Below, piece after piece: positions 41-38,456 of a stretch of DNA of 64,000 nt. How positions within the stretch are numbered: the stretch's first letter is position 1; each line of letters begins with the position of its first letter. The translations under genes were made by a program, and so were the position numbers. The notes beneath the pieces are model-generated. The model had not been told where the DNA came from. It ran no database searches and worked only from the letters and a program-made list of their open reading frames with translations. The DNA comes from Oscillospiraceae bacterium (GTDB taxonomy: Bacteria > Bacillota > Clostridia > Oscillospirales > CAG-272): contig SVQL01000001.1 of NCBI GenBank assembly GCA_015065365.1, positions 2,355-66,354 on the forward strand. The letters are read 5' to 3'.

Positions 41-1350
41 TTAATATATTACGATATCCGCTACTACGGGCATATGGTCGGAAAGGTATCTTCCGTTGAG
101 CTTGCTTTCATTGTTGAGAGTAGTAAAATATTCGGTATCGATTCTGTCGCTCGTTACAAAAATATGGTCGAAAATGTAATTTTGGCGTTTAGTTCCTTGC
201 GTTCCGTTGATTGTTCCGCCCAAGTCGCCCTTATTCTTTGCAACTGTTGCCGTTCTGTCGAAGCGATCAAGATTTTCAACGGATTTCAAGGTTTGACTCG
301 TGGGCACCGAGTTAAAGTCACCGACGAGAATAACGGGCAGCCCCTCGCATTTCTTTCCCTCAAGGAACTTATTAAGGTACTGTACCTGCTTGTATCTTCG
401 CCATCGTCGTTGGTCTCGCCTGCTGCGTTTCTGTACGTTACGTGAACGTTAACGAACATAAACTGCTTATGCGTAGCAAGGCTTTCGAGAACTACGTAAG
501 AAAATCCTCTGTAAGAATTAGACTCCTCAATCTTCGACTCAACGAACGGAGTGCTCGTCAAATATTGGAAACCGGAGGAGACCTTCTTGTATTTATCGGC
601 GTTCCAGAATATCATATTCGCCATACCGGTGCCCTTTAAAGCGATACCCTCGTAGCATTCGTAATTAGTCATTGCCGAGAGTATTTTTTCCTTATGCGTA
701 CTCATAGTTTCCTGCGTTCCGAAAACGTCAGGAGCCTGCTCCTTTATAAAGTTTGCAAGTGCCGTAATATCTCTCGGGAGTTCTCCGTTGTCGTCGTAAT
801 ACATATCGTAAAGCACGTTGTACGACATAACCTTAAGACTGTCCTTGGCAAACGCGACCTTTTCATTCTGTTCGACCTTAATTACGGTATCAGCACCTTC
901 GGTAGTAGCCTTAGCGAAAAATGCATCTATTACGCTGCAAAGTCCAACTTTATCCTTAGCCAGAATATATACGTTCTTTCCGTCATAGCCGATCATTCCC
1001 TCATCGCAGGACTCAAAGAACGAATAAATACTTGCGTCGCTACCCTTTTTGTCGATAAATATCTGGTATCCGTCGCCTGCGCTCTTAGTCGTCTCAAGCT
1101 CTATTTCATATATCTCATCCAATTTGATATTAAAATACTCAACGGCATACTCGCTTGCTTGTCCGCTGTAAACCAAGGTATAATCAGTCATCTTGATGCC
1201 GTTAAGCCTAAAGGTCGGCTCTCCCGACTGCGTCATCTGCGCTTCGGTATCGCTCGTTTGCGCGCCGTCTTGATTATTACAAGCAAACAACGAAGGCAAG
1301 AGCATAAGAAACGCCAACACTAAGCTTAAAAATCTAAATTTCCTTTTCAT
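41..1350 (-). pseudogene. EEP (endonuclease/exonuclease/phosphatase) family lipoprotein, interrupted by a -1 frame break
   Basis: Lipobox signal MKRKFRFLSLVLAFLMLLPSLFAC. EEP motifs VMSYNVL, FGTQET and VNVHVTY lie in ORF 286..1350. The remaining motifs GLPVILVGDFNS, FDHIFVT and LSDHMPVV continue only in the -1 frame (ORF 41..307 plus its upstream extension). Collinear with the intact paralogue 29539..30810. Confidence 0.6.
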
Positions 1351-1427
1351 TGAATTTCTCCCCTTTTGATTTAAAAACTATATGATAATCAGCCGCCGTT
1401 TTTCGTATGGCTGATGAATTTTCAATT

Positions 1428-2513
1428 TTATTCCTCGTAGCCGAATCTTTTAACAACGAAATTTTCCGCGCCCAATACGGGAAATACCTTCTCACCCCAC
1501 GGCTTATGCCAATAAAGCGAGCCGCGAAGTCTGTTTTCCGTGTCGCGTACTCCGTACTGAAGCTGGGAAATGGCAGGCTTAAAGCCCACTCCGCATTCAA
1601 AATTCAGTGTGCCCACGAAAACGTTGCACTTTCCTTTTTTGTTTCCGTAAAGCTCTACGTCGGTGGTAGACAAAATTACGGTATTATGCTGGGCTACTAT
1701 ATGATTTATGGTTGATACGTGAGAGCAATCGTGGAAGGTAATTCCTTCCTCACAGTTGTGGATATAAAGGTAATCCGCAACGACGTGCTCTCCCATAACG
1801 AAACCGTACTTAAAGCCCTGTACGGCTACGTTTCGCAAAACGTTATTGTCGTTTTGGTCCTGCGAGGTGATAAGTCCTGCAACGTGGCAGGGATTTTTCT
1901 GAAGCTCCTTACCGATAAAGGTATCTCCGATTTCTTCGTTCAGACAAAACTGAGAATCGCATATATTTATTCGAGATACGTTACCAAGGTTGACAGCTCC
2001 TTGCGTCGGATACATTTTTTCCTTGTCAAGCGCGACCGCAAACTCAAGATTATGTATAGAAAATGATCTCACGCTGAATTTTCCAGCGCAGGAATCTCCT
2101 ATCGGTGCGGACAGAATAGACCAAGGACGCGCCGTGGGGTCGTGCTCCTCGGGGGGATTCCAGTCGGAAAATATTCTCGTATTTGTACATTTTCTGCCAA
2201 ACGTAGTGGGAGAGTAATTTCCGTCGTCAGGTCTTACCTGATAGGGATACAGCATCGTGCAGGGCATTTCCCCCTCAAGTATGATGTTGTGTCTGCCTCG
2301 AGGTATGTACAGCTGAGAGCGCAACGGCTGCCCGTCAAGCTCCTCGATTCCCGGAGATGCTATCCTATATCCACCTTTTGTAAACGGGAATAAAAGCTTG
2401 CCGCCTCCACGCTTTGCAAGAAAATTTATTCCCTCCTGAATAGCGGCGGTATCGTCGGCAACACCGTCACCAACCGCTCCGAAATCTAACACCGAATAAC
2501 CGAATACAGACAT
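1428..2513 (-). CDS. Right-handed beta-helix protein, pectate-lyase-superfamily (Pectate_lyase_3-like) glycosidase/lyase
   Basis: The N-terminus SVLDFGAVGDGVADDTAAIQEGINFLAKRGGGKL matches the characteristic start of this superfamily. No signal peptide. Last-but-one gene of the locus-A operon. Confidence 0.5.
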   Translation of the reverse strand: MSVFGYSVLDFGAVGDGVADDTAAIQEGINFLAKRGGGKLLFPFTKGGYRIASPGIEELDGQPLRSQLYIPRGRHNIILEGEMPCTMLYPYQVRPDDGNYSPTTFGRKCTNTRIFSDWNPPEEHDPTARPWSILSAPIGDSCAGKFSVRSFSIHNLEFAVALDKEKMYPTQGAVNLGNVSRINICDSQFCLNEEIGDTFIGKELQKNPCHVAGLITSQDQNDNNVLRNVAVQGFKYGFVMGEHVVADYLYIHNCEEGITFHDCSHVSTINHIVAQHNTVILSTTDVELYGNKKGKCNVFVGTLNFECGVGFKPAISQLQYGVRDTENRLRGSLYWHKPWGEKVFPVLGAENFVVKRFGYEE

Positions 2514-2615
2514 AGCTCCTCCATTTTAGCCTTCATTTTAGGCTGTTAATAAACTTTGCCAAACAAAAATTTCAACCGTAATCGCCGTCTGCGTTTGGCA
2601 TTTTTAACGACGATA

Positions 2616-2648
2616 CTGCACAAGTCCATCAACGACGGACTTGTGCAG
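2616..2648 (-). terminator. Hairpin CTGCACAAGTCC(9 nt)GGACTTGTGCAG, 14 nt downstream of the SBP stop; weak U-tract
   Basis: 12-bp perfect stem read directly. Near-identical hairpin at 31005..31037. The trailing sequence is not U-rich, so it may be an intercistronic stabiliser rather than a full terminator. Confidence 0.35.
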
Positions 2649-2662
2649 CTGTATAATTTTAA

Positions 2663-4111
2663 TTAGTCTAATGCTTCGATAGAATTAAACAGATTTTCAA
2701 TCTTGTTTTCGGTAGGCGTCTTAACGCCGTTGTACAATCCGGATATATCCTTAGTAGTATTAATGCTTTCAAGCAAAATCTTAGTCTTAAGATTTATCTG
2801 GCTTCCGTATACAAGACCGAAATCGAACACAAGGCTATTGATAACGACGTCTACCATTTCAGCGCAAACCTCGTCGTAGCTGCTCTTTACCTTACAAACG
2901 GTGTTGTAGTAGGTAGTCAGCGTAGTGTCCGAGGACTTCCACGACAAAACCTCTACCATAAACGCGGAGAAGTCAGCGTCTGCCGCGCAGGTAGGAATAC
3001 CGAAGGTCGCGCCGTAGGTATTGTCGTTAGTCGTATAATAGCGTCCCTGCTCTACGTCGTACATAGGATAAGGCAAGGGCGTATAAGAGAACTGTGCGTT
3101 CTCGCCCAAGCTTTCAATGGACGACAGCGAGGAAGCGTAGAAGAACGCTCTGCCGTCAAGGAAGGTATCGTGCGGGTCGTCGTAAGTACCAAACTTATTT
3201 CCACAGAAGGAAAGATCCTCGCTAAAGAGCTTTCTGAGCTCGGCGATACTGTTCATGGAATGCTCGTTAGCAACCTCAACTGACCAATTTTCTTCCTCGT
3301 CGAACGCAACTATCTTATTGTTAAGTCCGCTCCAGAAGGAGATCGGGAATTCCTTACCTCCCGCGACGAGTCCCCAGCTGTCGTCAAGGTCCATCTTGCC
3401 ATCTCCGCCGGGATCGCTCTTCGTATAGATAAGCATCTGCTCTATGGTCCACTGCTTGTCGCGAACCATCTGAACGATATCGGGATGCTGATTTTCAGAA
3501 CCGAGATCTCGGTTGTAGTACAAGGTGTTGATTCTTGCCTTGTCAACGAGTGAGAAGTCACTTACCATGTGGAACAGTCTGCCGCCGACTCTCATCGTCT
3601 CAAGAGTATCGGAGTCGTACCACTCGTTTGAAAAGTCTATATACGATACTGCGTCAAGGTCGTTCATATATCCGCTGGTAATTGCTGTTCCCATATAGTT
3701 GCGCGCCAAGAACGCCAAATCGTAGTCGTAATCGTCAGCGAGTATAACGTTTTTAAGCGCCTCCAGACCGTCGGCATCCTCCGTGTGGCTATCATCAACC
3801 GTAATAGTTACGTTGTAATACTCCTCGATCCAGTTGTTTCTGTGGTAAACGGTATCTGACATTATATCTCCGCCGAGCTCGCCAACAAGCTCAAAATTAG
3901 GCTCGTAGGGGTTGTTCAGAGCGAGAATATTAAAGTTTCTTCCGCCCCAGTCGTAGTGAGGAACGGGATCGGTAGCCGCTTCTTCGACGAGTCCCTGGGT
4001 TTCCGTTTCCTCGGGCTCGTCAACCGTACACGAAACGAAGGTCGTAAGTAAAAGCAACAGTGCAAGAAGCAAGCTGCCTATCTTTAAAAGCTTACTTTTT
4101 AAATTAGTCAT
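2663..4111 (-). CDS. Extracellular solute-binding lipoprotein (sugar-type ABC SBP), orphan
   Basis: Lipobox LLLLLTTFVSC. ~480-aa architecture and motifs (VGGRLFHMVSDFSL...LYYNRDL) typical of Firmicute family-1 SBPs. Its start overlaps the upstream stop by 8 nt (ATGACTAA). No permease or ATPase genes anywhere in the locus. Confidence 0.55.
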   Translation of the reverse strand: MTNLKSKLLKIGSLLLALLLLLTTFVSCTVDEPEETETQGLVEEAATDPVPHYDWGGRNFNILALNNPYEPNFELVGELGGDIMSDTVYHRNNWIEEYYNVTITVDDSHTEDADGLEALKNVILADDYDYDLAFLARNYMGTAITSGYMNDLDAVSYIDFSNEWYDSDTLETMRVGGRLFHMVSDFSLVDKARINTLYYNRDLGSENQHPDIVQMVRDKQWTIEQMLIYTKSDPGGDGKMDLDDSWGLVAGGKEFPISFWSGLNNKIVAFDEEENWSVEVANEHSMNSIAELRKLFSEDLSFCGNKFGTYDDPHDTFLDGRAFFYASSLSSIESLGENAQFSYTPLPYPMYDVEQGRYYTTNDNTYGATFGIPTCAADADFSAFMVEVLSWKSSDTTLTTYYNTVCKVKSSYDEVCAEMVDVVINSLVFDFGLVYGSQINLKTKILLESINTTKDISGLYNGVKTPTENKIENLFNSIEALD

Positions 4112-5879
4112 CTTTTCTTCTCCTTGAGGTTAAACCAACGACGCCTATTGCAGAAGCCATAACCATAGCCGCGCCGCACAGTCCGATAGAGCTGCCGCAG
4201 CCGCCCTTAGGCGCCTCGGTCTCGGGAGCGGGAGCAGCCTCGGTGTCCTTATTATCCTCTACCAATACGGGAGGCTTGTTTTGGGGCTTGGAGGATCCGC
4301 CGTCATCATTTTCGTTCTCGTTGCCGTCGTCCTCGGGAATGTCCATAGGAGGAGCCGCTTCATTTTCAGCAGCTATGAGAGCAACACCCTTGTATACGTT
4401 AAGGTCACTTACGGTTACTTCGGTCACGAAATACGAATAGAAGTAAATTCCAAGATAATCTCTAAAGAATACGGAAGGATCTTCAACAGGGCTGTACTGC
4501 TCGATAAGAAGCCATCTGCCCTCGGAGTCCTTTACGTACAAAGCGATCGTGGTATTATCGCCGTTGATCTCCATAGCGTACTCCTGAACGGAAGGATAGT
4601 TCTCCGTTCCGCCGTCGTATCCGGGAACGTAATCGCTAGTAAGCGTAGAGTAATCAACGTGAGAGTATCCGCTTACCGCGTTACCGTTTCTCTGCGGTCT
4701 TCCCTTGTTAGCATAGAAGTATCCGCCGTAGACACCGTCGATGAGCAATCCAAGCGGAACGTTGCTCGTACGGGTCATAGTAAACTTAACGGTGTAAGAA
4801 TATCCTGCGCCGAGAGGAAGTCCCTCGATGTCTGCGCCCCAAGCGGCGTTTTTCTTTTCGGTAACGCCTTCCTCGCCCGTAGGTCTTTCAGTAACCCTAA
4901 TGGTTACCTTGCCTGCGTCCTCGGAATCAACGTTTGCGGTGATATTATCGCAAGGCCACTCCCAACCTGCGTTTGCAGCAGCGGCTGCGTTGCTGGGCTT
5001 GAAGCAATCGTCAGCTCCGCTGAAGTCAGCAGAGTAAAGAAGTCCGCCCTCTTCAACTCCGTCCCACAAAGCCGTTGAGATTTCGGGTTCTTCGCCTTCA
5101 CCCTCGCCTTCACCCTCGCCACCTGCGGGAGGAGTAACGGCAGCATTTTCATTAGCTACAACCGATATGCCCTTGTATACGCATACGTCGCTAACGGTTG
5201 CTTCAGTTACGTAATACGAATAGAAATATAATCCAAGACGGTCTCTGAAAAATTCGGGCGGATCCTCCTTGGGAGTACCATCGTCTATCTTGCTCCATTT
5301 GCCGTCCTCGCCCTTTACGTACAAAGCAAACGTCGTATCGTCACCGTTTATCTCAATAACGTACTCCTGCTCTGTCTTTTCGGTATAATTAACCCAGCTA
5401 TGTCCTGTCAATGCGCTACCGTTTCTTTGAATTCGAGCCTTGTGTGCGTAGAAATAACCGCCGTGAGTGCCGTCAAACAGCAATCCGATAGGTTTTGCGT
5501 TATCTGCGCAGGAAACCTTGAACTTAATCGTATAGGAATATCCCTCGCCAAGAGGAAGATCGTCTACGTCCGCGCCCCAAGCAGTATTGTTCTGCGGTGT
5601 AACCTTAAAAGTCACTTTGCCGGAGTCCTCAGGATCAACCGTTGCGGTTATATTATCGCAAGCCCAGTTGTAGCCTGCGTTTGCGGCAGCAGTTTCGTTG
5701 CTGGGCTTGTAGCAGTCACCAGCGCCGCTAAAGTCAGCCTCGTAGAGAAGCGCTCCGTCCGCAGCAGCAGCGTAAATATCGTTCGTAGCCACGTCTGCAA
5801 ACGTCGCGATTGCCATGAAGGGTACGGTCATCATCAAGACCAATACCAATGCCAAAATTTTTTTCATTGTATTTTTCAT
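4104..5879 (-). CDS. Secreted protein with two lectin-like repeats and a C-terminal GGCG-helix-RRRKDD anchor/sorting signal
   Basis: Signal peptide MKNTMKKILALVLVLMMTVPFMAIATFA. Two ~230-aa internal repeats (LLYEADFSGAGDCYKPSN... and LLYSADFSGADDCFKPSN...), each ending VSDxxVYKG, joined by a (GE)n linker. The tail is KGGCGSSIGLCGAAMVMASAIGVVGLTSRRRKDD. Confidence 0.75.
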   Translation of the reverse strand: MKNTMKKILALVLVLMMTVPFMAIATFADVATNDIYAAAADGALLYEADFSGAGDCYKPSNETAAANAGYNWACDNITATVDPEDSGKVTFKVTPQNNTAWGADVDDLPLGEGYSYTIKFKVSCADNAKPIGLLFDGTHGGYFYAHKARIQRNGSALTGHSWVNYTEKTEQEYVIEINGDDTTFALYVKGEDGKWSKIDDGTPKEDPPEFFRDRLGLYFYSYYVTEATVSDVCVYKGISVVANENAAVTPPAGGEGEGEGEGEEPEISTALWDGVEEGGLLYSADFSGADDCFKPSNAAAAANAGWEWPCDNITANVDSEDAGKVTIRVTERPTGEEGVTEKKNAAWGADIEGLPLGAGYSYTVKFTMTRTSNVPLGLLIDGVYGGYFYANKGRPQRNGNAVSGYSHVDYSTLTSDYVPGYDGGTENYPSVQEYAMEINGDNTTIALYVKDSEGRWLLIEQYSPVEDPSVFFRDYLGIYFYSYFVTEVTVSDLNVYKGVALIAAENEAAPPMDIPEDDGNENENDDGGSSKPQNKPPVLVEDNKDTEAAPAPETEAPKGGCGSSIGLCGAAMVMASAIGVVGLTSRRRKDD

Positions 5880-5921
5880 AAAAAGCCTCCTTGTTTTTTT
5901 GAAAAAAATTTTTAATGCTTT

Positions 5922-6047
5922 TTAGAATGGGTCTTCCGCCCAGTTATCGAGAGTGTCGCTTCCGAATATGACAGAAAATACCATGATGTCCTTCGTGTCA
6001 AGATTTACGACGCTGAGCTCGGGAACGACGTATTTTTTATTTTTCAT
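5922..6047 (-). CDS. Conserved 41-aa micro-protein (MKNKKYVVPELSVVNLDTKDIMVFSVIFGSDTLDNWAEDPF), unknown function
   Basis: ATG at 6047 with AGGAGG 9 nt upstream; TAA at 5922-5924. The paralogue at 32321..32449 has 33/41 identical residues, and half of the codon differences are synonymous. Too short for the supplied ORF track. Confidence 0.6.
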   Translation of the reverse strand: MKNKKYVVPELSVVNLDTKDIMVFSVIFGSDTLDNWAEDPF

Positions 6048-6065
6048 AATACTGTTCCTCCTTAA

Positions 6066-9000
6066 TTAGTAAACGAATTTTGCATAAACGGGCAGATGGT
6101 CGGAGGGATATCTCATTACTCCGTCAACCTCATCCACCTTGTTGTTGATTACGGTATACTCGAGAGCCTCAGCGTTTCTGTATATGACGTGGTCGAAGAC
6201 ATACTTATTACGAACTGTGTAATCGGTTCCGTCAAGCGTACCGCCGGTGTCACCTGCAATGAGCGCCTCGTCTCTTGCGAAGGAGAGTCCGCTGTCGGAG
6301 TATCCGTTGAGAACGACCTTACCTTTAGCCGAGCTAACGTCTGCATTCATGTCACCGGTAAGTATCTGCGTAGGATACTGTGCTGCCTTTTCCGCAAGCC
6401 ATGCAGCGAGAAGTCTCGACTGATATTCACGCAAGAGATGGTCGTCATCACACTCCGAATCAGAGGAGCTGGTACCGTCACCGTAATGGAGGTGAGTATT
6501 TACGAAGAGTATTACCTCGCCGGTCGTCTTGTCTTTGAGAACTGCGTAGCTAAAGGTTCTTCCGATGTCCTCGTCAGAGAACCAGCCCTCGGCATCTCCC
6601 TGAACGTCGATAGACATATCTGTGCCCTCGTAGCCCTCAATGGTATAGTCGTCAGCAAGATTCTTGAAGGAATCCCAACCGGAGCTCACAAGAGTGAACT
6701 TCTCAGTCTTGTAGTATATATCGTTGAATGCCCAGCCGTTGCCGAACTTGTTAGTATATTTGTTGTACTGTCTGTTGCCGGCAAGATTTGCATAGCCATT
6801 GTTCTTGAGAACAGCGAGATAATCGTTCCAATCCTCGGTGTCCTCCTGGATTCCGACAACGTCGGGGTTAGCATCAAGGATCGTCTGAACTGCGTTTGCG
6901 GGGTTTCTTCCCTCCCAAACGTCGTCTCCCTTATACTCAAGGTTGTAGGACAATACGTTAATATAGGATTGCTTCTCTTCATTTTCTCCGTCTGCAGGAG
7001 TGAAGAAGCCTGTAAGTGTCTTCAATTCGTCTGCATCGTAGGGGCTGTAAACGGTAGTGCCTGCAATAACTACGGAGTTATTGTACTTCTCGTTGCTCTC
7101 AGTGCTAACATCGCCGTATGCAGCTCTTGCAACCTCGTCGATAGATCTGGAGTTGCTCTCCAAATCGAAATCAGCGTATTTATAGATCTCTCCGTTTACT
7201 TCAATAAATGCTCTTGCGGAGAACTCGCGGTTGTAGTTGCCCGCCTTAACGTTAACGAGCGCGCAGTTGATGGTATAGGAAGCAGGGTCTTCGTCTTCGT
7301 GAATAGTCGTTGCGTCTATCCTTACGTACTTAGCACCCGTAATAGCACCGCATGCGTCCAGAGCCGCCATTTCAAAGTCTACACCGTTATTAGTAAGATA
7401 GTCGGTAGGAGTAATGATCATACCGAGCTTAACATTATCCTCGCCGTAGGTCTCTCTCAAGGAGTCGATCACGGGCTTTGAGAATTCACTCTTGAAGCGG
7501 ATACCCGTAGGAACGCTAAGACGAACGGATGCGCCGGATACGTTCAATACCTTTCCAAACTTAAGTCCCTTGTATATCTTTACGTCGGAAACCTCAGTCC
7601 AAGAATCCGCGTCAGAAGTGCCGCTCAATTTTCTTGTATAAATTCTGCATTTCAATGTATCTTTAAGCGCTGAACCCTCATAGGTCATCGCTCTTACCTT
7701 GTTGAACGAACCGTCGGCATCCATGACGTAAAGAGTCAACGTATTGTACTCGGGATCAACCTCAACAGCAAACGTATGCTTCTCAGCCTTAGCCACGTCG
7801 GTACTGTAATTCCATTTGTCTTCGCCCTCATCCGACTTTTCTACCTTTTGAGTATTCCATTCCCACAGAGAGTTACAACCGAAGCCGTCAATAACAAGCG
7901 TCTGATTGCCATCCACCTGAATACCGAGTCCGTACTTGTTATATGCTGTGTTTCCGAACTCCAGATCAAACACGAGGGTGTAATTGTTGTTCTTGTATAC
8001 GGGAGCTGCGCCTGCTTCAACCTCATCGGGATTCAGAACCTCTCTGAGAGGATATCCGCTGTCAAGTCCGCCCCATATAGCGCGGTTATATGCCTTGCCA
8101 TCAATAAGGGTAATTCTTGCAGAGCTTCCGTCCTCGGAAATAACAGCTTCTGCGCCATTATTATTACTGTCGTAGAATCCCTGATGCCAATTAAAGCGAT
8201 CAGCGAAGTTGACGGTATGCAATAGATCGCCCTCGTTTGCGTTTGCGTACTCAGCAGCTCTGTCTTCCTTAACGGATATAGGCAAGCCCTTGTATATCTG
8301 CACGTTAGAAACATAAGTCCAAACGTCGCTGCCAGTCGTGTAGCTGCGCGTGTAAATTCTGCAACTCAATTCAGTGCCAAAGGACAATTCTTCGTATCTG
8401 GCAACCTCGTTAAACGTGCCGTCAAGGTCTACGATATAGAGGCTCATTACTCCGTTTTCAGGATCGACCTCAACCGCGAACTTCTGAGTTCCTTCCTTAG
8501 GACTCCACAAACCGTCGTAGTCCCACTGCTCGGTGGGATATTTTTCTGCGTCTGAACTACTGAGCTCGGTATTCCAATCCCACAGCTTAGTGTTTCCGTT
8601 TCCGTCAACGGTAATAGTGTAGCTTCCGTCCACCTGAATACCAACCAGCGTTTTACCTCCGGTCGTGCTTCCGAAATCCGCATCGAATATAACCGTATAT
8701 TTTCTGTAATTGCCGTATACGTCTATCGTTGCGCTGGGATCATCAGGATCCTCTGCCGTACCTACAACCTCCATAAGGGGATACGCACTCTTCAATCCGC
8801 CCCACATAGCGCGCTTCGAGCTTGAGCCCAATACGGCAAGTCTTGCGGAGCTTCCGTCCTTGGAAACGACTACGTCCGCGCCTCTGTTGGAGTCAGTTGC
8901 AAAATAACCGAGCCACTCAAGCGAGTTGAAATCGACGGTATTCAGAAGATCGCCAACCTCTGCGTTATCATACTCAGCAGCTCTGTCTACCGTTCCCGTT

Positions 9001-10433
9001 TCAATATCATTAACCAATCCCTTGTATATCAGTATATCCGAAATCTCATTCCAGGAAACGCCGCTTACTTTTCTAGCATAAACTCTGCAACTCAATTCAT
9101 CATTAAAAGATATGCCGCTATAGGTTTCTACCTCTACGTACGTGCCTTCGGCATTCTTAACGTAAAGAGTCATCGTTCCGGTAACGGTTCCGTCTTCAGG
9201 GTCAGTTCCGGTATCAGGGTCAATCTCAACGGCAAATGAATTCATCTCGTCATAACCGTTCGCTGCCTTATCTATCCAGTTGACCGTTCCCGTAGTGTTT
9301 TTGGTATTCCAACTGTACAAATAGGTAAGGCCATCGCTGGCGACAAGAACCGTTTTACTGTTATCCACCTGGATGCCTACTCCGGTTTTTCCGTCTTCGA
9401 ATCTCGCGTCAAAGGTGACCGTGTACGTTTCTCCGTTCGCGAGAGAAAAGCGTTCCGCAGATACAAGTCCGCCCCACATAGCACGACCATTTTTGGCACC
9501 AAAAACAGATTTAGACGTGTTATGTATCTCCTGCTTTAGCGATCTTCCGCTTGCGGAAACGTATACATAGGAATTCCAGTTGTTGTGGTCAGCATAATCG
9601 TCGCTCCAGGACGTATCGTTGAAGTTGATAGCCTTAAGCAGTTCTCCGTTCTCTGCCTCTGCGTACAGCTCAGAAGGAGTCATTTCAACAGCGTCGGGAG
9701 TAACGACCGTTCCGTTTACGGTAACCTCACCGATATCGATGCAGCCGTCCTTGCTGGGTGCGGTTACGGCGATAGCGAAATACTTTGCCGTGACACCCTG
9801 ACCTTCACCGTCACGAAGATCTATCTTATGACCAACTCTGAGGAAGCCGTCAACGGTCTTGGAAGCGTATGCGTCGTCACCCTCAGCGGGGAAGTTCGCG
9901 CCCGCGTTCGTTCCGTCTCCGCACATTTCGCTGAACTCCTTCAAAGCAGTCCAGGTCTCGCCGTCCGTGCTCACGAGGATTTCATATCCGTCGTTTATAC
10001 CCCAGCTTGAAGCAGGATTGCTCCATCTTGCAGCCTGATCGGCAGTATATCCGTTTCCGGCAATCCAAATAGTTACGTCGTCAAGCTCACTCGTGCCGTT
10101 AAGCTCGAATACGGCGTATCCGTAGTACAAGCACATTTCCGAATCTACGAAAAGACGCGTATTTGCAGCGGATATCGCATCCGACTCGTAGTACGGACGA
10201 GCGCTCCTTCCGTCGGCACTCTCATCGTAAGGGTCTCCGTCAATCATTCCCGCAACGGAGCCGTACGAAACGTGCAAATCCCAGTCGTCGTCGTATTTTG
10301 CAAACATCTTCACGTGCTTAATGCTCGCGGGAGTAATTTCAGCATCCTCCGCACTTGCGGGCAAAACTATGATTGGCATTGCCATCATCAAGACCAATAC
10401 CAAGCATAAAAGCTTCTTTGCAATCTTTTTCAT
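6066..10433 (-). CDS. Secreted 1455-aa multidomain protein: F5/8-type-C-like domain, 3 lectin-like repeats, beta-sandwich domain, C-terminal EEP phosphoesterase
   Basis: Start at MKKIAKKLLCLVLVLMMAMPIIVLPASA, with AGGAG 6 nt upstream (ORF-track start 10508 rejected). YEILVSTDGETWTAL is a discoidin-like motif. Three repeats each end xIYKGL. GASVRLSVPTGIRF marks the beta-sandwich domain. EEP motifs: VLSYNLE, VGIQED, VNTHLHYG, TGDMNAD, FDHVIY, PSDHLPV. Confidence 0.85.
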   Translation of the reverse strand: MKKIAKKLLCLVLVLMMAMPIIVLPASAEDAEITPASIKHVKMFAKYDDDWDLHVSYGSVAGMIDGDPYDESADGRSARPYYESDAISAANTRLFVDSEMCLYYGYAVFELNGTSELDDVTIWIAGNGYTADQAARWSNPASSWGINDGYEILVSTDGETWTALKEFSEMCGDGTNAGANFPAEGDDAYASKTVDGFLRVGHKIDLRDGEGQGVTAKYFAIAVTAPSKDGCIDIGEVTVNGTVVTPDAVEMTPSELYAEAENGELLKAINFNDTSWSDDYADHNNWNSYVYVSASGRSLKQEIHNTSKSVFGAKNGRAMWGGLVSAERFSLANGETYTVTFDARFEDGKTGVGIQVDNSKTVLVASDGLTYLYSWNTKNTTGTVNWIDKAANGYDEMNSFAVEIDPDTGTDPEDGTVTGTMTLYVKNAEGTYVEVETYSGISFNDELSCRVYARKVSGVSWNEISDILIYKGLVNDIETGTVDRAAEYDNAEVGDLLNTVDFNSLEWLGYFATDSNRGADVVVSKDGSSARLAVLGSSSKRAMWGGLKSAYPLMEVVGTAEDPDDPSATIDVYGNYRKYTVIFDADFGSTTGGKTLVGIQVDGSYTITVDGNGNTKLWDWNTELSSSDAEKYPTEQWDYDGLWSPKEGTQKFAVEVDPENGVMSLYIVDLDGTFNEVARYEELSFGTELSCRIYTRSYTTGSDVWTYVSNVQIYKGLPISVKEDRAAEYANANEGDLLHTVNFADRFNWHQGFYDSNNNGAEAVISEDGSSARITLIDGKAYNRAIWGGLDSGYPLREVLNPDEVEAGAAPVYKNNNYTLVFDLEFGNTAYNKYGLGIQVDGNQTLVIDGFGCNSLWEWNTQKVEKSDEGEDKWNYSTDVAKAEKHTFAVEVDPEYNTLTLYVMDADGSFNKVRAMTYEGSALKDTLKCRIYTRKLSGTSDADSWTEVSDVKIYKGLKFGKVLNVSGASVRLSVPTGIRFKSEFSKPVIDSLRETYGEDNVKLGMIITPTDYLTNNGVDFEMAALDACGAITGAKYVRIDATTIHEDEDPASYTINCALVNVKAGNYNREFSARAFIEVNGEIYKYADFDLESNSRSIDEVARAAYGDVSTESNEKYNNSVVIAGTTVYSPYDADELKTLTGFFTPADGENEEKQSYINVLSYNLEYKGDDVWEGRNPANAVQTILDANPDVVGIQEDTEDWNDYLAVLKNNGYANLAGNRQYNKYTNKFGNGWAFNDIYYKTEKFTLVSSGWDSFKNLADDYTIEGYEGTDMSIDVQGDAEGWFSDEDIGRTFSYAVLKDKTTGEVILFVNTHLHYGDGTSSSDSECDDDHLLREYQSRLLAAWLAEKAAQYPTQILTGDMNADVSSAKGKVVLNGYSDSGLSFARDEALIAGDTGGTLDGTDYTVRNKYVFDHVIYRNAEALEYTVINNKVDEVDGVMRYPSDHLPVYAKFVY

Positions 10434-10531
10434 GTTTTTCTCCTTTTTTGTTTTGTTTTTATTTTTAATAGCGTATATTTTTACGCCAATTAAATTAAAT
10501 ATAATCACTTAATATCGTTATTACCAAATAT

Positions 10532-11170
10532 TTACTCGTCTACGGTAATAGTACAGTACAACGCATAGTGGTCTGAAAGATCTGTTCCCGCAAGCGTAAA
10601 ATCGGTTACGGTAACACCCTTATATACGATATTATCGAGAGAGGAACCACTCTCGTACGTTGGCATTTTATCATCAGTGTTTCCGAGAGTGTAGCCCGCG
10701 TCGGTAAAGAGTTCAAACTCAGAGAATGAGTTAATGTTCCAGTCACCGAGAAGAACAACGTGCTCATATTGCTCACAATACTCAATAAGCTCTTTTAACT
10801 GATTGTTTATAATGTTCTTCGAGCCAAATGCCAGATGCGTGCTGACAAGCTTAACCGTCGTGCCGTTTATCACAAGGTCGGTGGTAACAAAATAATAATC
10901 GGCACCCTCAGGGGAATATTTTCCGAGCTTACCCAAATCCTTATTACACTCAAACTCGTGAACTTCAGGCTCGGATATCTCTATTCTGGAATATACCGCG
11001 TTACAGCTGTAATTGCGCTGAGGTCCCTCGTAAACGGTATCGTATCCCTTAAAAATTGTATCCTTTGCAAGATAGTTATTCTTTGTGAACTTTTTGCTGT
11101 ACTCGTTCAAGAACATAATATCTGCATCAATGGCATTATTGATATAGTCGCTGAAATCGGCGTTCTTCAT
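10532..11170 (-). CDS. EEP catalytic core lacking its first strand (downstream half of a split EEP lipoprotein gene)
   Basis: Motifs DADIMFLNEY, VSTHLAFG, LGDWNI, LDNIVY and LSDHYAL. The ATG overlaps the upstream TGA (ATGA at 11167-11170). The N-terminal WN strand is encoded by the preceding ORF in another frame. Confidence 0.6.
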   Translation of the reverse strand: MKNADFSDYINNAIDADIMFLNEYSKKFTKNNYLAKDTIFKGYDTVYEGPQRNYSCNAVYSRIEISEPEVHEFECNKDLGKLGKYSPEGADYYFVTTDLVINGTTVKLVSTHLAFGSKNIINNQLKELIEYCEQYEHVVLLGDWNINSFSEFELFTDAGYTLGNTDDKMPTYESGSSLDNIVYKGVTVTDFTLAGTDLSDHYALYCTITVDE

Positions 11171-12219
11171 TGCAAACTGAGTGTCCTGATCGTGGAATAA
11201 TCCTTATGCCCGATCGAAAAGTGACCGATGTTCCACGTAGCTATCCTTACGGAATTGGGATTTTCAGGTCCGTACGACGCCTTGGTAAACTTGATTTCAG
11301 AGGGAAGATACGTTGTTGCGGAATTATTGTTGTAAACATAGAGGTATCTTGCATTATCGGGAATTCTTACGGTAATACTATCCTCGTTTACACTTACCAC
11401 GTTAGTATATCCCGCGGCATAGCAGGGAGTAAGATCATAGCAAAGCTCGTCACCCATAAATGCATAGGTAATAGCCTTACCATTCGCATTTTTCTTCATG
11501 GTAACAGTATTGAAAGTAGTACCCTCAAGCTCGATTATCGCGCCTTTCATCGACGATGATTTGGCGTAAACGTTTGAGCTTGTAACGTAACCGTCAAGAA
11601 CCTCTATTTGTTCAAGCGGGTATACGCACTCCGCAGCGCTTTCGTTTATGAGCGGATTGACATAGCCGTCAATGAAGGTTACGGACTTAGGAATATGAAT
11701 ATCCTTTTTGCTGCTATAGTAAACATAGAGATACTTTGCGTCATCGGGGATCTTTAGCGTTGCTTTTGTGGAAATATCCCATACGCAATGGGTATATCCG
11801 GTTGCATACTTGGGAGTCGTATTCAGGGCAAGCTCACCCGCAAGAAACGTATAGCCAAGCGAAAATCCGCTGTCGTTTTTCTCAAGCTGAACGTGAGAAT
11901 AGTCGATCCCGTCAAGGTCGATCACGGCACCGTAATAGCCGTCTGCCTTTTTGTACTTATTTTCCTTATCGGCAATCGTGCCCGGAAGCTTAACAATATC
12001 CTCAACAGAATAAGAAAACGTTCTGATATAATCCATCTCGGATTCATCCTTATCGTCTTTAGGAGCGGTATCTGAACTGTTGGTATCCGTGTCACCGCTT
12101 CCGCTTTCACCTATGTTAGGTGTAGGGGTTTCGTTTTCCGTGTTTCTACATGAGCTTAGACAGGCAAGTGTCGAAATCAAAATAACAGCCACTAAAATTT
12201 TTGCAATAAGGTTTTTCAT
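11167..12219 (-). CDS. Lipoprotein with two ~120-aa internal repeats, ending in the first EEP strand (VRIATWNIGHFS)
   Basis: Lipobox ISTLACLSSC. Internal duplication (…IPDDAKYLYVYYSS… and …IPDNARYLYVYNNN…). The C-terminus IATWNIGHF is the EEP N-terminal Mg-binding strand, and the rest of the domain is in 10532..11170. Confidence 0.6.
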   Translation of the reverse strand: MKNLIAKILVAVILISTLACLSSCRNTENETPTPNIGESGSGDTDTNSSDTAPKDDKDESEMDYIRTFSYSVEDIVKLPGTIADKENKYKKADGYYGAVIDLDGIDYSHVQLEKNDSGFSLGYTFLAGELALNTTPKYATGYTHCVWDISTKATLKIPDDAKYLYVYYSSKKDIHIPKSVTFIDGYVNPLINESAAECVYPLEQIEVLDGYVTSSNVYAKSSSMKGAIIELEGTTFNTVTMKKNANGKAITYAFMGDELCYDLTPCYAAGYTNVVSVNEDSITVRIPDNARYLYVYNNNSATTYLPSEIKFTKASYGPENPNSVRIATWNIGHFSIGHKDYSTIRTLSLQ

Positions 12220-12342
12220 AATCTCTCCTTCGAACTTTAAGTATACGGATTATAGATATAAAGTCTAAGCTTCCGTCAAAAGTAAAAACATATTTGAAGG
12301 ATTTATCAAAGACGGAGTGCACTATGTCCGCTATTATAATTC

Positions 12343-12371
12343 ATTATACCATGGTTCGGTTTTGCTTTCAA
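12343..12371 (-). promoter_or_regulatory. Candidate sigma-A promoter of the locus-A operon (TTGAAA-17-TATAAT, TG-extended -10)
   Basis: On the minus strand, TTGAAA is at 12371-12366, followed by a 17-nt spacer and TGGTATAAT with -10 at 12348-12343. About 120 nt upstream of ATG 12219. Confidence 0.5.
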
Positions 12372-12465
12372 TAAACGCAGGTTAAATGTAGGCAACAAAA
12401 AGTGATATTTGCCATAGAAATTATTTCCTTCTATTTGTTTATATTCACCATTTTATACTATGCTA

Positions 12466-12494
12466 TTGACAAATAGCGAATAGGGTTGTATAAT
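12466..12494 (+). promoter_or_regulatory. Candidate sigma-A promoter of the AraC-type regulator (TTGACA-17-TATAAT)
   Basis: Perfect consensus hexamers with a 17-nt spacer, 67 nt before ATG 12561. Same arrangement as 38553..38581. Confidence 0.6.
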
Positions 12495-12560
12495 TAACTA
12501 CGGTAATATAGTACAATTTACCAAAAAAACACATTTTTAGAAAAGCGGGGATAATGCAAA

Positions 12561-13514
12561 ATGAAGTTTACTCATTGCGATTATAAGTATAAAAGCGCAT
12601 CCACAAACGCCACTAAGGGCAATATACATTCCCGAAAGATGCGAGTCGCAAGCAGCCGCGCCGACTTAAAGCAGGATACCGAATACTACGCATCCTGGAT
12701 ATGCATTTACGCAACGGACAAGGATATAACCGAGTTTAATCTCGGAATTGACTATTCTTATCCCAATCAAACGATAAGAGACAGATGCGAGGGCAGACTT
12801 TTCCTTAATTTTATCGTAAAGGGTAAAGGAACTATTAACGGCGAGCCGTTTTCCGCGGGGCAATTCTTTTATACACGTCCTCTGCAAAAGCATACTATAC
12901 AGTCCGATCCCGACGATCCTTACGTCTCCGTTTGGATATACGTCCAGGGTGAGTACGCCAATTACGTAGAAAACGAATTGATTAAAAAAAGCAACAGTAC
13001 GACTATGACGTTAAACAATTATACCGACGTATTGGAGCTTACGAAAACCTTTCTTTTTACAATCAATCTCGCCGAAACGTCAACCTCTTATCTCAAGCAC
13101 CTGATAAATATCTACCTTTCTTATATATCTCCCAATAACGAGCTGGATTATCCCGAGATATTTGCTACTCAAAAAATAACGCGCCTCGTTTACGCCGCAA
13201 AAACGTATATCAGCAAAAACCTAAAAACAGTTACCGTTGCCGATCTCGCGGCTAATCAGCGCTATAACGTAAAATATTTTTCAAGGCTCTTCGCCTCTGC
13301 CACGGGCATGAAGCCCGCCGAGTATATAACCGACTGCAGAATTGAATGGGCGAAAAACTCGCTTGAGCACTCCGATCTCTCCGTCTCGGAAATATCCGAA
13401 GCAATCGGCTACGAGCACAGAAACGGCTTTGCCACCGCTTTCAAAAAAAAATACGGCTGCTCCCCTACTGAATACAGAAGAAAAACTAAAGGAAGCAACA
13501 AGGTTAGCGAATAA
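12561..13514 (+). CDS. AraC/XylS-family transcriptional regulator (cupin-like sensor + HTH)
   Basis: C-terminal HTH region YFSRLFASATGMKPAEYITDCRIEWAKNSLEHSDLSVSEISEAIGYEHRNGFATAFKKKYGCSPTEYRR. Divergent from the operon. Paralogue at 38648..39592. Confidence 0.85.
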   Translation: MKFTHCDYKYKSASTNATKGNIHSRKMRVASSRADLKQDTEYYASWICIYATDKDITEFNLGIDYSYPNQTIRDRCEGRLFLNFIVKGKGTINGEPFSAGQFFYTRPLQKHTIQSDPDDPYVSVWIYVQGEYANYVENELIKKSNSTTMTLNNYTDVLELTKTFLFTINLAETSTSYLKHLINIYLSYISPNNELDYPEIFATQKITRLVYAAKTYISKNLKTVTVADLAANQRYNVKYFSRLFASATGMKPAEYITDCRIEWAKNSLEHSDLSVSEISEAIGYEHRNGFATAFKKKYGCSPTEYRRKTKGSNKVSE

Positions 13515-30810: not shown

Positions 30811-30837
30811 TTTTTTCTCCTGTTTTGTATTTTAGAT

Positions 30838-30866
30838 ATATTACAATCATCCGTCAGAACTTTCAA
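30838..30866 (-). promoter_or_regulatory. Candidate promoter TTGAAA-17-TAATAT for the EEP lipoprotein gene
   Basis: Hexamers read on the minus strand at 30866-30861 and 30843-30838. Confidence 0.35.
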
Positions 30867-31004
30867 CGTCCGTTCCTGCGGCTGAATAATTTTCGAATTT
30901 TAACTTAAGCGGTATTTTCAATTCAAGGTTATAAATAAAATAATCGTTCTGTATTCATTACGGTATATTGGGGTGTTGTTCTAACGTTAAGTAAAATTAA
31001 ACAA

Positions 31005-31037
31005 CTGCACAAGCCCGTCAAAGACGGACTTGTGCAG
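31005..31037 (-). terminator. Rho-independent terminator after the GGCG-tail gene; copy of hairpin 2616..2648
   Basis: CTGCACAAGCCCGTC aaa GACGGACTTGTGCAG (15-bp stem, one mismatch). On the minus strand it is followed by TTGTTTAATTTT. Confidence 0.55.
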
Positions 31038-31131
31038 CATTCTGTAGCTATTAGTCTAATAGCATATCACACGTCACGAACTGTTGACATGTTTTAAAAC
31101 GTATTCAAAATATATTGCGAAGTTTTTTTAA

Positions 31132-32274
31132 TCAGTCTTCTTTTCTCTTGATTACGAGAGCCGCGCCGGAAGCGAGTGCTATCATAGCAACGCCTGCAAT
31201 TCCGATAGAGCCGCCGCATCCGCCTGCAGCTGCCTCAGTCTCGGGAGCAGGAGCAGCATCGGTGTTAGCCTCAGTATTTGCGTCGGTTTCGGGAGTCGTG
31301 TTGGTGTTGTTATTCTCGTTGTTATTCTCGTTGTTATTCTCGTTGTTCTCGCCGTTGTTCTCATTGCCGTTCTCCTCGCCGCCTTCTTCGCCGGCAGAGG
31401 GTACGTCTAATTCGGGAGCAGCAAGCTCGTGCTCGGTAACTGCAAGTCCCTTGTATACACTAACGTTGTGAACCTCCATAGTAAGGAACTGCTCGGGGGT
31501 AACGTTGTCGCGTCCGAAACGGATAACGTATTCCCAGTTATCGTAAGCCCAACCGTGGCTCTCCTTAATCATCTGTGCGTCAACAGGCTCATCTTCCATC
31601 GAGAAGATCAATTCCCATGCGCCGTCCTTAACGACGTAAACATTATAAACGGTAATGTTATATACGAATCCAGCAGTGGTTTCGGTATTCATAGCGCCTT
31701 CGGGATGCTCACCGGTACCCTCGTCCTTGATTTCGATAGCGTAGGTCTGGGTCAAAGCAGCGTCACCGGTAGGTCCGTCGTATTCAACCGTAAACTTGGT
31801 GCTATCGTATTTTCCGCCCGCGTTTACAACGTAGGACAGGGTGTTCTTACCGGGAGTAAAGAAGAAGCCGGTTCTCCAGTCGGGATAGTATCCTATCGCC
31901 TGATTTTCATCCTCAGCGCTGAGAGTGAATACGGTGGTATAAGCGCTCTGGTGCATAGTGAATCCACTACCGGGCAAACGTCCGCCGTAACCACTTGTGT
32001 GACCCTCGTTTTTGACATCAGTCTGGGGAATGTAGGTAAAGGACATTCCGTCCTCTGAGACCTCAACGTTAGCGCCTGCCCAAGTAGCCGTAACGCCGAA
32101 GTATTCCTTGTTGTTGAAGTCTACGTTAGCGATAAGCTCGCCGTCTTCAACTGCGCCGTAGTTTTCGGGGAGCGACACCTCGCTGTTCTCTGCGAATGCC
32201 GCGATTGCCATGAAGGGCACGGTCATAAGAGTAACCAATGCCAAAGCCAAAATTTTTTTCATTGTGTTTTTCAT
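31132..32274 (-). CDS. Secreted single-repeat lectin-like protein with N/E-rich linker and C-terminal GGCG-helix-KRKED signal
   Basis: Start at MKNTMKKILALALVTLMTVPFMAIAAFA (AGGAGG RBS; ORF-track start 32358 rejected). Repeat motifs YTTVFTLSAEDENQAIGYYPDWRTGFFF, QTYAIEIKDEG and VSVYKGLAV. The tail is AAGGCGGSIGIAGVAMIALASGAALVIKRKED. Confidence 0.8.
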   Translation of the reverse strand: MKNTMKKILALALVTLMTVPFMAIAAFAENSEVSLPENYGAVEDGELIANVDFNNKEYFGVTATWAGANVEVSEDGMSFTYIPQTDVKNEGHTSGYGGRLPGSGFTMHQSAYTTVFTLSAEDENQAIGYYPDWRTGFFFTPGKNTLSYVVNAGGKYDSTKFTVEYDGPTGDAALTQTYAIEIKDEGTGEHPEGAMNTETTAGFVYNITVYNVYVVKDGAWELIFSMEDEPVDAQMIKESHGWAYDNWEYVIRFGRDNVTPEQFLTMEVHNVSVYKGLAVTEHELAAPELDVPSAGEEGGEENGNENNGENNENNNENNNENNNTNTTPETDANTEANTDAAPAPETEAAAGGCGGSIGIAGVAMIALASGAALVIKRKED

Positions 32275-32320
32275 AAAAAACCTCCTTAAAATTTTATTGA
32301 AAAAAATTTGTTTACTGTTT

Positions 32321-32449
32321 TTAGAATGGGTCTTCCGCCCAGTTATCGAGACTGTCATTTCCGAATATTACGGAAAATATCATAATATCCTTCGTATCAA
32401 CAGTAACGACTCTCATTTCGGGAGAAACGTATTTTTTATTGCTTTTCAT
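32321..32449 (-). CDS. Conserved 42-aa micro-protein (MKSNKKYVSPEMRVVTVDTKDIMIFSVIFGNDSLDNWAEDPF), paralogue of 5922..6047
   Basis: ATG at 32449 with AGGAGG 9 nt upstream; TAA at 32321-32323. Same position between the EEP gene and the GGCG-tail gene as in locus A. Confidence 0.6.
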   Translation of the reverse strand: MKSNKKYVSPEMRVVTVDTKDIMIFSVIFGNDSLDNWAEDPF

Positions 32450-32463
32450 TTTTTCATTCCTCC

Positions 32464-33300: not shown

Positions 33301-33305
33301 CGCTG

Positions 33306-36830: not shown

Positions 36831-36866
36831 GTTTTTCTCCTTTCAAATAAAATTACTATTTGGGAG

Positions 36867-38342: not shown

Positions 38343-38427
38343 AAATACCTCCTGAATTTACTTTGTTTTTTACGGTGAAGCGTGTTGCGCCACAGTCAAA
38401 ACGCAGCTCGCTGATATTCACGATACC

Positions 38428-38456
38428 ATTATACCGCGATTACCCGTCTTTTTCAA
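38428..38456 (-). promoter_or_regulatory. Candidate promoter of the locus-B operon (TTGAAA-17-TATAAT)
   Basis: On the minus strand, TTGAAA is at 38456-38451 and TATAAT at 38433-38428. Same hexamers and spacing as 12343..12371. Confidence 0.5.

Follow-up and report, generated by a model that had tools for sequence, protein, structure and literature searches.

The window analysed here is a stretch of 64,000 nucleotides from an Oscillospiraceae bacterium (contig SVQL01000001.1). It encodes two surface proteins, here called A and B, that end in the same kind of C-terminal tail, in which a glycine-rich motif with a single cysteine is followed by a hydrophobic helix and a charged end. Both tails belong to a widespread C-terminal sorting signal of uncultured gut Clostridia. 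The favored reading, held with moderate confidence, is that the last ~35 residues of A and B are a dedicated sorting signal whose cysteine would be lipidated by Lgt and whose helix would be removed by a protease of the CPBP family. The position of tail genes upstream of an lgt-CPBP gene pair in related genomes suggests that the proteins are held at the cell surface by a lipid on the tail cysteine.

Two cysteine-containing tails in the window

Protein A (591 aa) is a tail-bearing surface protein encoded on the minus strand at 4104..5879. Protein B (380 aa) is its tail-bearing paralogue, encoded on the minus strand at 31132..32274; both were read from open reading frames (ORFs) and their translations. 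The C-terminal end of A is ...AAPAPETEAPKGGCGSSIGLCGAAMVMASAIGVVGLTSRRRKDD, with closing residues ...ETEAPKGGCGSSIGLCGAAMVMASAIGVVGLTSRRRKDD after the linker. The end of B is ...AAPAPETEAAAGGCGGSIGIAGVAMIALASGAALVIKRKED, and its closing residues as set against the tail of A are ...ETEAAAGGCGGSIGIAGVAMIALASGAALVIKRKED. The signature motif of A, K-G-G-C-G-S-S, lies at 4188..4208. The codon of Cys561 is at 4197-4199, and translation places the GGCG codons at 4194-4205, just where the original prediction had put them. A hydrophobic transmembrane segment, IGLCGAAMVMASAIGVVGLTS (4125..4187), abuts the motif directly and is also matched by the family profile described below. The charged end RRRKDD, predicted to be cytoplasmic, occupies 4104..4124 together with the stop codon. 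In B the signature motif G-G-C-G-G-S lies at 31207..31224, with the cysteine codon at 31216-31218, and the transmembrane segment IGIAGVAMIALASGAALVI and charged end KRKED span 31135..31206 (translation and tail hidden Markov model (HMM)). All of these features are on the minus strand.

Both tails read GGCG(S/G)S, then a ~20-residue hydrophobic helix, then RRRKDD in A or KRKED in B. The tripartite build that had been proposed, with motif, hydrophobic helix and basic cluster, is seen in both translations and in the position counts of the family. The N-terminal domains of A and B are distant paralogues with 28% identity (E=4e-13). Their linkers differ and the tails still align, which agrees with the earlier view that the tail is conserved despite unrelated linkers.

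Size and make-up of the tail family

A full-length search with protein A returned 11 homologues at 40-51% identity. Ten of the 11 end in G-C-[GA]-[SA]-x-I, a helix and [KR]3-[DE]; the cysteine is thus kept in 10/10 tail-bearing full-length homologues. The remaining homologue, P0009, lacks any tail. A tail profile of 38 positions was then built from 12 tails. A word-indexed search with the tail alignment gave 3 weak matches, so an exhaustive profile search of 1.84 billion cluster representatives was used instead. This search, the kind of scan for further carriers that the original prediction had called for, matched 285 protein clusters at E<=1e-3. Among the best 150 of the 285, the match ends within 4 residues of the C-terminus in 149, and the matched proteins span 44-1220 aa with unrelated cargo.

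The consensus consists of a Thr/Glu/Ala/Pro-rich linker, E-E-K-[KGS]-G-C-G-S-[SVA]-[IV]-[GA], ~20 hydrophobic or small residues, and K-K-K-E-D as the last residues. In counts anchored on the cysteine, the preceding glycine and the cysteine itself are present in 157/157 representatives, a figure that is partly circular. The following glycine is present in 144/157 and the serine after it in 136/157. The distance from the cysteine to the end is 27-28 residues in 95/157 representatives. Rare S-C and N-C variants exist in the family and keep the cysteine. The position counts also show small-residue G/S/A patterns along the helix and, over the 157 representatives, no invariant proline in it. The motif G-G-C-G-x-S-I-G, described earlier as invariant, holds between the two paralogues, but G-C is the only part of it that is fixed in the family as a whole (157/157).

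Since the G-C invariance is partly built into the original profile, an independent tail HMM was made from tails of unrelated genomes only. It gives 31.8 bits for protein B and 27.1 bits for protein A. There is no third tail in the window by this HMM, the next best of 1046 ORF segments scoring 4.5 bits.

Distribution of the tail

The DNA of one genome per GTDB species was scanned for the pattern C-G-S...K-K-K-E-D-stop, with TGC as the only cysteine codon. At least 120 loci were found and at least 101 of them have a genuine in-frame tail. The tail-positive loci come from at least 77 genomes, counted as distinct whole-genome shotgun prefixes in the locus list. Among the matches listed, the carriers are metagenome-assembled genomes (MAGs) of uncultured Clostridia, Eubacteriales, Oscillospiraceae, Ca. 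Scatosoma, Clostridium sp. CAG:448 and Mageeibacillus sp., and their habitats are the guts of ruminants, humans and other animals. Among these matches the tail is restricted to Clostridia. At 19 loci the pattern was matched by chance and no tail is present; these lie in Streptococcus, Bacteroidota, archaea and others. Phages do not carry the signal, because none of 12 pattern matches in viral contigs is a genuine tail. With 285 clusters, unrelated cargo and at least 101 loci from at least 77 genomes, the tail is more than the shared ancestry of two paralogous anchors, a possibility that had been raised at the outset.

Many genomes have several tail genes. Three to four lie in tandem at loci L056, L096, L121 and L135, and at least 8 are spread over 5 contigs of MAG RGIG5350. 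Clustering of the tail-bearing proteins from the sampled loci gave many unrelated groups. A Pfam scan of 68 full-length tail proteins left most without a domain, and the others have 15 different surface-type domains. The cargo domains include FIVAR, Flg_new, F5/8 type C, Glug, GDSL lipase, cohesin, beta-helix, Big_2, Big_3, laminin-G-like, LTD and MBG, which are the usual repertoire of surface-anchored proteins. An N-terminus resembling a signal peptide, with a basic start and a hydrophobic run, is present in 73/92 representatives of at least 200 aa, and most of the others look truncated.

The family also includes metagenomic mini-ORFs of 65-110 aa (P0014, P0070, P0074, P0106, P0126, P0148 and others). 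In each, an N-terminal lipoprotein signal peptide is joined to the Cys tail by a short Thr/Glu/Ala/Pro linker, and there is nothing else. Processing of both ends, if it occurs, would yield a short peptide with a lipid at each terminus.

Gene neighborhood of lgt and CPBP

Tail genes are linked to a gene pair that encodes an Lgt-family protein and a CPBP-family protein. At locus L114 the order is tail gene, lgt (PF01790, E=3e-30) and CPBP (PF02517, E=5e-20), with CPBP overlapping lgt by 8 nt. This CPBP has 119 relatives, all in Clostridia-type MAGs or metagenomes. Seven further CPBP relatives with 37-70% identity were examined, and lgt lies immediately upstream and overlaps in 6/7. The pair recurs in seven lineages. 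The gene before lgt is tail-bearing in 4/6 of these further pairs (L140, L146, L230 and L231). The surroundings of the pair vary and include tsaB-rpiB, peptidase M20, plsY and others.

A second neighborhood search started from lgt and covered 80 metagenome loci. CPBP is adjacent at 42 loci; 34 of these have an upstream ORF on the same strand, and that ORF is tail-bearing in 18. Of the lgt loci without CPBP, 25 have at least 900 nt of downstream sequence. An upstream same-strand ORF is present in 19 of the 25 and is never tail-bearing. A tail therefore lies upstream of lgt in 18/34 cases with CPBP vs 0/19 without (Fisher p=4e-5, for loci that are not phylogenetically independent). Across the 42 paired loci the two genes mostly share a few bases, and the remaining pairs lie within about 190 nt of each other. 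Where lgt has no CPBP neighbor, the contexts include lgt-galK, ABC-F-lgt-spo0A and lgt-MGMT.

The tail motifs upstream of lgt-CPBP include the variants GCKS, GCKT, GCTS and GCAS. The cargo at this position belongs to at least five families with no mutual BLAST similarity. Since these upstream cargo families are unrelated, tail-lgt-CPBP is not one inherited block.

Other neighbors were considered as enzyme candidates. Recurrent neighbors of tail-positive loci, namely an SGNH-like protein, a small 4-helix membrane protein, NusB, XseA and a radical SAM protein, were dropped because all come from one syntenic lineage. Further multi-helix neighbors are ZIP, TauE, ECF-S, Rnf and TMEM164 proteins, which were likewise set aside. 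The seventh of the further CPBP relatives, P0254, from a sample that also contains the window contig, has no lgt neighbor and no tail nearby. No sortase was seen among the tail-locus neighbors; a regular expression flagged about 15 ORFs, and the two that were checked by Pfam are TsaD-family and NmrA-like proteins.

Properties of the linked CPBP and Lgt proteins

The tail-linked CPBP scores 72 bits with Pfam PF02517, above the cutoff of 22.4, and is a member of that family. The residues E122, E123, R127, H159 and H203 are kept in 119/119 relatives, within the motifs EExxxR, FxxxH and Hxxx(N/D). The top NCBIfam score is with an ABC-permease/CPBP fusion model, and the best named models after it are MrtJ, Mrt_core, MrtS, MrtP and MrtZ. 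The best named myxosortase match, MrtJ, gives 24-36 bits against a cutoff of 75, and Mrt_core (NF040914) gives 20-36 bits against a cutoff of 100. A PDB sequence search with the CPBP protein gave no match. The tail-linked CPBP is read here as a putative new subfamily near the myxosortases.

The CPBP-linked Lgt scores 105.6 bits with Pfam PF01790 (cutoff 24.9), but only 69-77 bits with TIGR00544 (cutoff 118.9). The motif GR[IL]GC[LF]xxGCC[YH]G takes the place of GRLGNFINGELWG of E. coli Lgt. The catalytic residues of E. coli Lgt are presumably R143, N146, E151, G154, R239 and E243. The linked Lgt aligns R143, G154, Y235, R239 and E243, and it has cysteine in place of N146 and E151 within the motif GRIGCLMAGCCYG. 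Lgt proteins with these two replacements and a score below the TIGR00544 cutoff occur with or without a following CPBP (L150-L229, L114, L140, L142, L146 and L149). The failure of TIGR00544 raised the idea that the CPBP-linked lgt is a dedicated paralogue. This is unlikely, since its motif and identity level match those of lgt without CPBP.

Comparison with known C-terminal signals

NCBIfam release 20 was scanned with 14 tails or tail proteins, and no model scored above its cutoff. LPXTG_anchor (TIGR01167) reached 11-14.7 bits vs a cutoff of 15.9 and Rumino_NPXTG (NF033846) at most 14.1 vs 23.5; these partial matches align the helix and charged end only. MYXO-CTERM (TIGR03901), JDVT-CTERM and CGP-CTERM were not listed at E<=10 on the same set. 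Among the tail proteins scanned, Pfam gave no model for the tail. The model NF058595 (invert_tail, 'lipo-invert putative C-terminal anchoring domain') never matched the Cys tail in the tails or tail proteins scanned; below its cutoff it matched three mini-proteins, and these only in their N-terminal lipoprotein signal peptides. No description of the tail was found in the literature, in which the myxosortase work is the nearest, without mention of Firmicutes. The tail is an apparently uncatalogued signal outside the four curated families MYXO-, Synerg-, JDVT- and CGP-CTERM, because it fails their models and has no second cysteine, D-P, invariant proline or C-G-P.

The best reading is that the functionally nearest systems are MYXO-CTERM with MrtX and its relatives (Synerg-, JDVT- and CGP-CTERM), of which the tail would be a Gram-positive counterpart. 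The earlier likening to Cys-bearing MYXO-CTERM-type signals stands in that this is the nearest described class, though no curated model recognizes the tail. Cleavage of MYXO-CTERM by the CPBP protease MrtX has been shown experimentally and requires the cysteine; Lgt is the leading, unproven candidate for lipidation of that cysteine, and MrtX processes its substrate in E. coli too (PMC11980579). Both signals are tripartite, lie at the extreme C-terminus and occur on many unrelated surface proteins per genome. Both have an invariant cysteine in a Gly-rich motif that abuts the helix, GCGC in MYXO-CTERM and GCGS in the tail. A CPBP/Rce1-like protease is common to both, as a candidate in the case of the tail, and in both the proposed order is lipidation of the cysteine and then cleavage. 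The hosts differ, being Myxococcota for MYXO-CTERM and monoderm Clostridia for the tail, which would therefore involve no outer membrane or type II secretion step. The tail has one cysteine whereas MYXO-CTERM frequently has two, and the tail end is Lys-rich and then acidic (KKKED) whereas that of MYXO-CTERM is an Arg cluster. The coupling of lgt and CPBP with substrates upstream is a further difference, as it was not found reported for the MYXO-CTERM/Mrt systems (PMC11980579; bioRxiv 10.1101/2023.06.07.544157).

Synerg-CTERM (TIGR04564), the target of MrtS in Synergistota, also has a short Gly/Ser-rich motif with one invariant cysteine directly before the helix. It is the best-scoring Cys-signal model, with 16.4 bits on P0070 against a cutoff of 22.5, a weak match that again comes from the helix and charged end. 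It differs in phylum, in the invariant proline of its Leu-rich helix and in a motif that ends at the cysteine, where the tail has G-S after it. The MrtS model gives the tail-linked CPBP about 20-26 bits vs a cutoff of 130. JDVT-CTERM with MrtJ and CGP-CTERM with MrtA are also Cys-containing tripartite signals with cognate CPBP proteases, and the JDVT system often places target and enzyme genes side by side, as is seen here. However, the near-invariant D-P that precedes the Leu-rich helix of JDVT-CTERM is absent from the tail, and CGP-CTERM has Cys-Gly-Pro and a length of about 20 aa, neither of which is a feature of the tail.

Two lipid-modification pathways resemble the tail in part. In the N-terminal lipoprotein pathway (lipobox, Lgt and signal peptidase II) a membrane-surface cysteine among small residues, a hydrophobic helix and a Lys-rich end are combined as in the tail, and an Lgt-family gene is genetically linked to tail genes. 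The tail differs in being C-terminal with inverted topology, so that another protease would have to remove the helix C-terminal of the cysteine. In CAAX processing (prenyl transferase and Rce1/MmRce1) a near-C-terminal cysteine is lipidated and a glutamic protease of the CPBP family then trims the rest; the tail-linked protease shares the catalytic motifs EExxxR, FxxxH and Hxxx(N). However, a membrane helix of ~28 residues would be removed from the tail vs three residues in CAAX processing. The tail substrate also faces the outside of the cell, and its lipid would be diacylglycerol in place of the prenyl group of CAAX proteins.

LPXTG/NPXTG sortase signals share with the tail the layout, the kind of host, the helix with a KKKED-type end and the adhesin-like or glycan-binding cargo. 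The tail differs in that the cysteine takes the place of the Thr-Gly cleavage site. The tail has no LPXTG-type motif, in agreement with the original prediction, and its motif abuts the helix with no spacer. Such an arrangement is typical for signals of membrane-embedded enzymes, unlike LPXTG signals (Haft, bioRxiv 10.1101/2023.06.07.544157). No link to a sortase was found for the tail. The chance loci in Streptococcus (L079, L090, L092 and L109) include LPXTG proteins ending ...LPNTGTES...GKKKED. That these ends match the pattern means that the helix and charged end of the tail closely resemble classical sortase signals, and it may hint that the tail evolved from a sortase signal. Locus L106 of the tail-bearing MAG fecal_MAG_401 encodes a protein (4698-6365) that ends in NPNTGDNAVISVIVAAIAVTALGAAVVTKKSRA, an NPXTG-type sortase signal. 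Anchoring by the Cys tail and by sortase can therefore coexist in one genome.

Proposed pathway and alternatives

In the proposed pathway the protein would be exported through its N-terminal Sec signal peptide, and its C-terminal helix would then anchor it transiently in the membrane and leave the K/R-rich end on the cytoplasmic side. Such an orientation would place the cysteine of E-E-K-K-G-C-G-S at the outer face of the membrane. Its thiol would then be lipidated, most likely with diacylglycerol from Lgt. The CPBP/Rce1-like intramembrane glutamic protease of the lgt operon would cut just past the lipidated cysteine and so remove the helix and KKKED. The mature protein would stay at the surface, on the outer face of the membrane, through the lipid on its C-terminal cysteine. 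Lipidation, cleavage and their order are what we infer for the tail, and we likewise expect an lgt-CPBP pair in the organism of the window. The order is consistent with Rce1-type enzymes, which cut only once the cysteine is lipidated, as established for Rce1 and MmRce1.

The tail can also be read backwards. Its reversed order is a Lys-rich end, a hydrophobic run, small residues and cysteine, which is the layout of a lipoprotein signal peptide. The PROSITE-type lipobox rule was applied to the reversed tails, and 283/289 satisfy it. A tentative extension, somewhat short of an even chance, is a mirror image of the lipoprotein pathway, in which the ordinary Lgt would modify a reversed C-terminal lipobox and a dedicated, co-transcribed CPBP would act in the place of signal peptidase II.

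Several results weigh against the proposed pathway. The window has no lgt or CPBP gene (tblastn) and no sortase or rhomboid among its membrane proteins (Pfam scans), so the original statement that no processing enzyme is encoded in the window was correct. No lgt-CPBP pair could be linked to the organism of the window, and neither gene is present within 10 kb of the cassettes orthologous to that of protein A in five other lineages. The association of the tail with CPBP is one of gene neighborhoods in related genomes, and the p value of 4e-5 comes from metagenome loci that share phylogeny. The G-C invariance is in part a product of selection, since the profile or pattern used to gather the members itself contains G-C. 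This concern is softened by the full-length homologue search and by extra tails in the loci beyond the pattern matches. The CPBP scores of 20-36 bits are far from the curated myxosortase cutoffs of 75-325. Foldseek with the CPBP model (mean predicted local distance difference test (pLDDT) 92.9) gave no significant PDB match, and MmRce1 was outside the top 50. The unusual GR[IL]GCxxxGCC motif of the CPBP-linked lgt is also seen in lgt without a CPBP neighbor. Since these share the GCxxxGCC motif and a similar identity level, the CPBP-linked lgt is probably the ordinary housekeeping lgt of the clade, and its place beside CPBP could have another reason. To our knowledge, no study has shown Lgt acting on a cysteine before a helix of inverted topology.

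The alternative that survives best is that the tail is a permanent single-pass anchor of a type I membrane protein, with G-C-G-S serving another role at the membrane surface, for example in helix packing, a disulfide with a partner or reversible acylation. A hydrophobic helix with a basic cluster suffices for anchoring, the small-residue G/S/A patterns along the helix would suit packing, and the missing enzyme genes in the window and beside the orthologous cassettes fit as well. However, an invariant cysteine, a fixed length from cysteine to end and a shared KKKED would be unusual for a simple anchor on hundreds of unrelated cargo proteins in at least 77 species. The strong association of tail genes with lgt-CPBP (18/34 vs 0/19) also speaks against it, and a permanent anchor is considered unlikely.

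A second alternative is that CPBP cuts the tail without Lgt, in which case the cysteine would be modified by another enzyme or the cut would release the protein. The link to CPBP is the stronger half of the neighborhood evidence, the linked lgt is probably a housekeeping copy, and the lipidating enzyme of MYXO-CTERM is still unknown (PMC11980579). Against this, lgt and CPBP overlap or lie within about 190 nt at 42 loci and stay together across differing surroundings. The fit of the reversed tails to the lipobox rule (283/289) and the need of Rce1-type enzymes for a lipidated cysteine also argue for Lgt. Cleavage without Lgt is therefore regarded as quite improbable.

It is very improbable that the tail is a non-canonical sortase signal cut inside G-G-C-G to link the protein to the cell wall, because the Gram-positive look of the helix and charged end, the sub-cutoff scores of LPXTG_anchor (11-14.7 vs 15.9) and Rumino_NPXTG (<=14.1 vs 23.5) and the KKKED of streptococcal LPXTG proteins are set against a tail with no LPXTG-like pentapeptide, the absence of the motif-helix spacer usual for sortase signals (bioRxiv 10.1101/2023.06.07.544157), neighbors in which no sortase was seen (two of about 15 candidates checked being TsaD and NmrA) and a normal NPXTG-type protein in the L106 MAG, where any sortase would read another motif.

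Significance of the tail

Cys-containing signals processed by CPBP proteases have been described for Myxococcota, some Proteobacteria, Synergistota and Thermococcales, and the tail would add monoderm Firmicutes. In abundant uncultured Clostridia of the gut and rumen, it appears to be a major display route for adhesin-like and glycan-binding proteins, beside or instead of sortase. The 2025 myxosortase study left the Cys-lipidating enzyme open (PMC11980579), and the coupling of lgt-CPBP with upstream tail genes is independent genomic support for Lgt. If the mirror-image pathway is true, the lgt-CPBP operon would identify Lgt as the lipidating enzyme for all Cys-containing C-terminal signals, MYXO-CTERM included. 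The tail gene, lgt and CPBP form a compact three-gene cassette. The tail HMM would label hundreds of anonymous surface proteins in gut metagenomes.

Domains, host and cassettes of the window

Protein A begins with a Sec-type N-terminal signal peptide, MKNTMKKILALVLVLMMTVPFMAIATFA, at 5796..5879. Two beta-sandwiches follow in the AlphaFold model and Foldseek matches. The first, with a ConA-like lectin fold, covers about aa 34-238 (5166..5780), where the predicted confidence (pLDDT) is about 76-91 per 10-residue block. The second covers about aa 270-498 (4386..5072) and is an internal repeat of the first by alignment consensus, the domain being ~230 aa long. A disordered acidic Pro/Thr/Asn-rich linker lies at 4209..4367. 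These features are all on the minus strand. The model has a pLDDT of 69 overall and about 76-92 per 10-residue block across most of both domains; from residue 505 on it falls below 50, and linker and tail are disordered. Foldseek matched the Bacteroides surface glycan-binding protein 7kwb, laminin G, clostridial neurotoxin binding domains and CBM22. Because of the predicted beta-sandwiches and these matches, protein A is most likely a two-domain, lectin-like glycan binder. Protein B has one beta-sandwich domain.

The window is 99.99% identical to metagenome contigs of JGI and ENA samples, and 17 metagenome contigs encode a protein identical to protein A. The assignment to a Firmicute, as in the original prediction, is sound because the sporulation gene yqfD is present in the window and the relatives are all Clostridia MAGs.

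The gene of protein A lies in a cassette that is conserved across several lineages. It encodes an AraC regulator, a solute-binding lipoprotein, a pectate-lyase-fold protein, several proteins of the endonuclease/exonuclease/phosphatase (EEP) family and a giant secreted protein. The window has two such paralogous cassettes, at about 41-13514 and about 29539-39592. Both have an AraC regulator, a solute-binding-type lipoprotein, a tail-bearing lectin-like protein, a giant secreted protein and further EEP lipoproteins, and the pectate-lyase-fold protein is found in cassette A only. The giant secreted protein of cassette A (6066-10433) ends in an EEP domain. That of the second cassette (33306-36830) has no Pfam match and is followed by a separate ORF (32464-33300), which ends ...PSDHLPV, a motif common to the EEP-domain proteins of the window.

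In P0009, the metagenome homologue of protein A without a tail, the tail is replaced by a C-terminal module that resembles one close to the end of the giant neighbor (GA.VRL..PTG.RF...). This is a case of domain shuffling between genes of the protein A type and of the giant-protein type.

Two EEP genes of the window are split. Compared with metagenome contigs L001 and L002 (window 41-1350), the window is one base short near 399, which splits the gene of a 436-aa EEP-family lipoprotein into the ORFs 286-1350 and 41-307. A one-base difference from L001 near 11188 splits the gene of a 562-aa EEP lipoprotein (10532-12219), and L002 and L003 are split likewise. These one-base splits may reflect strain polymorphism, phase variation or an error of assembly.

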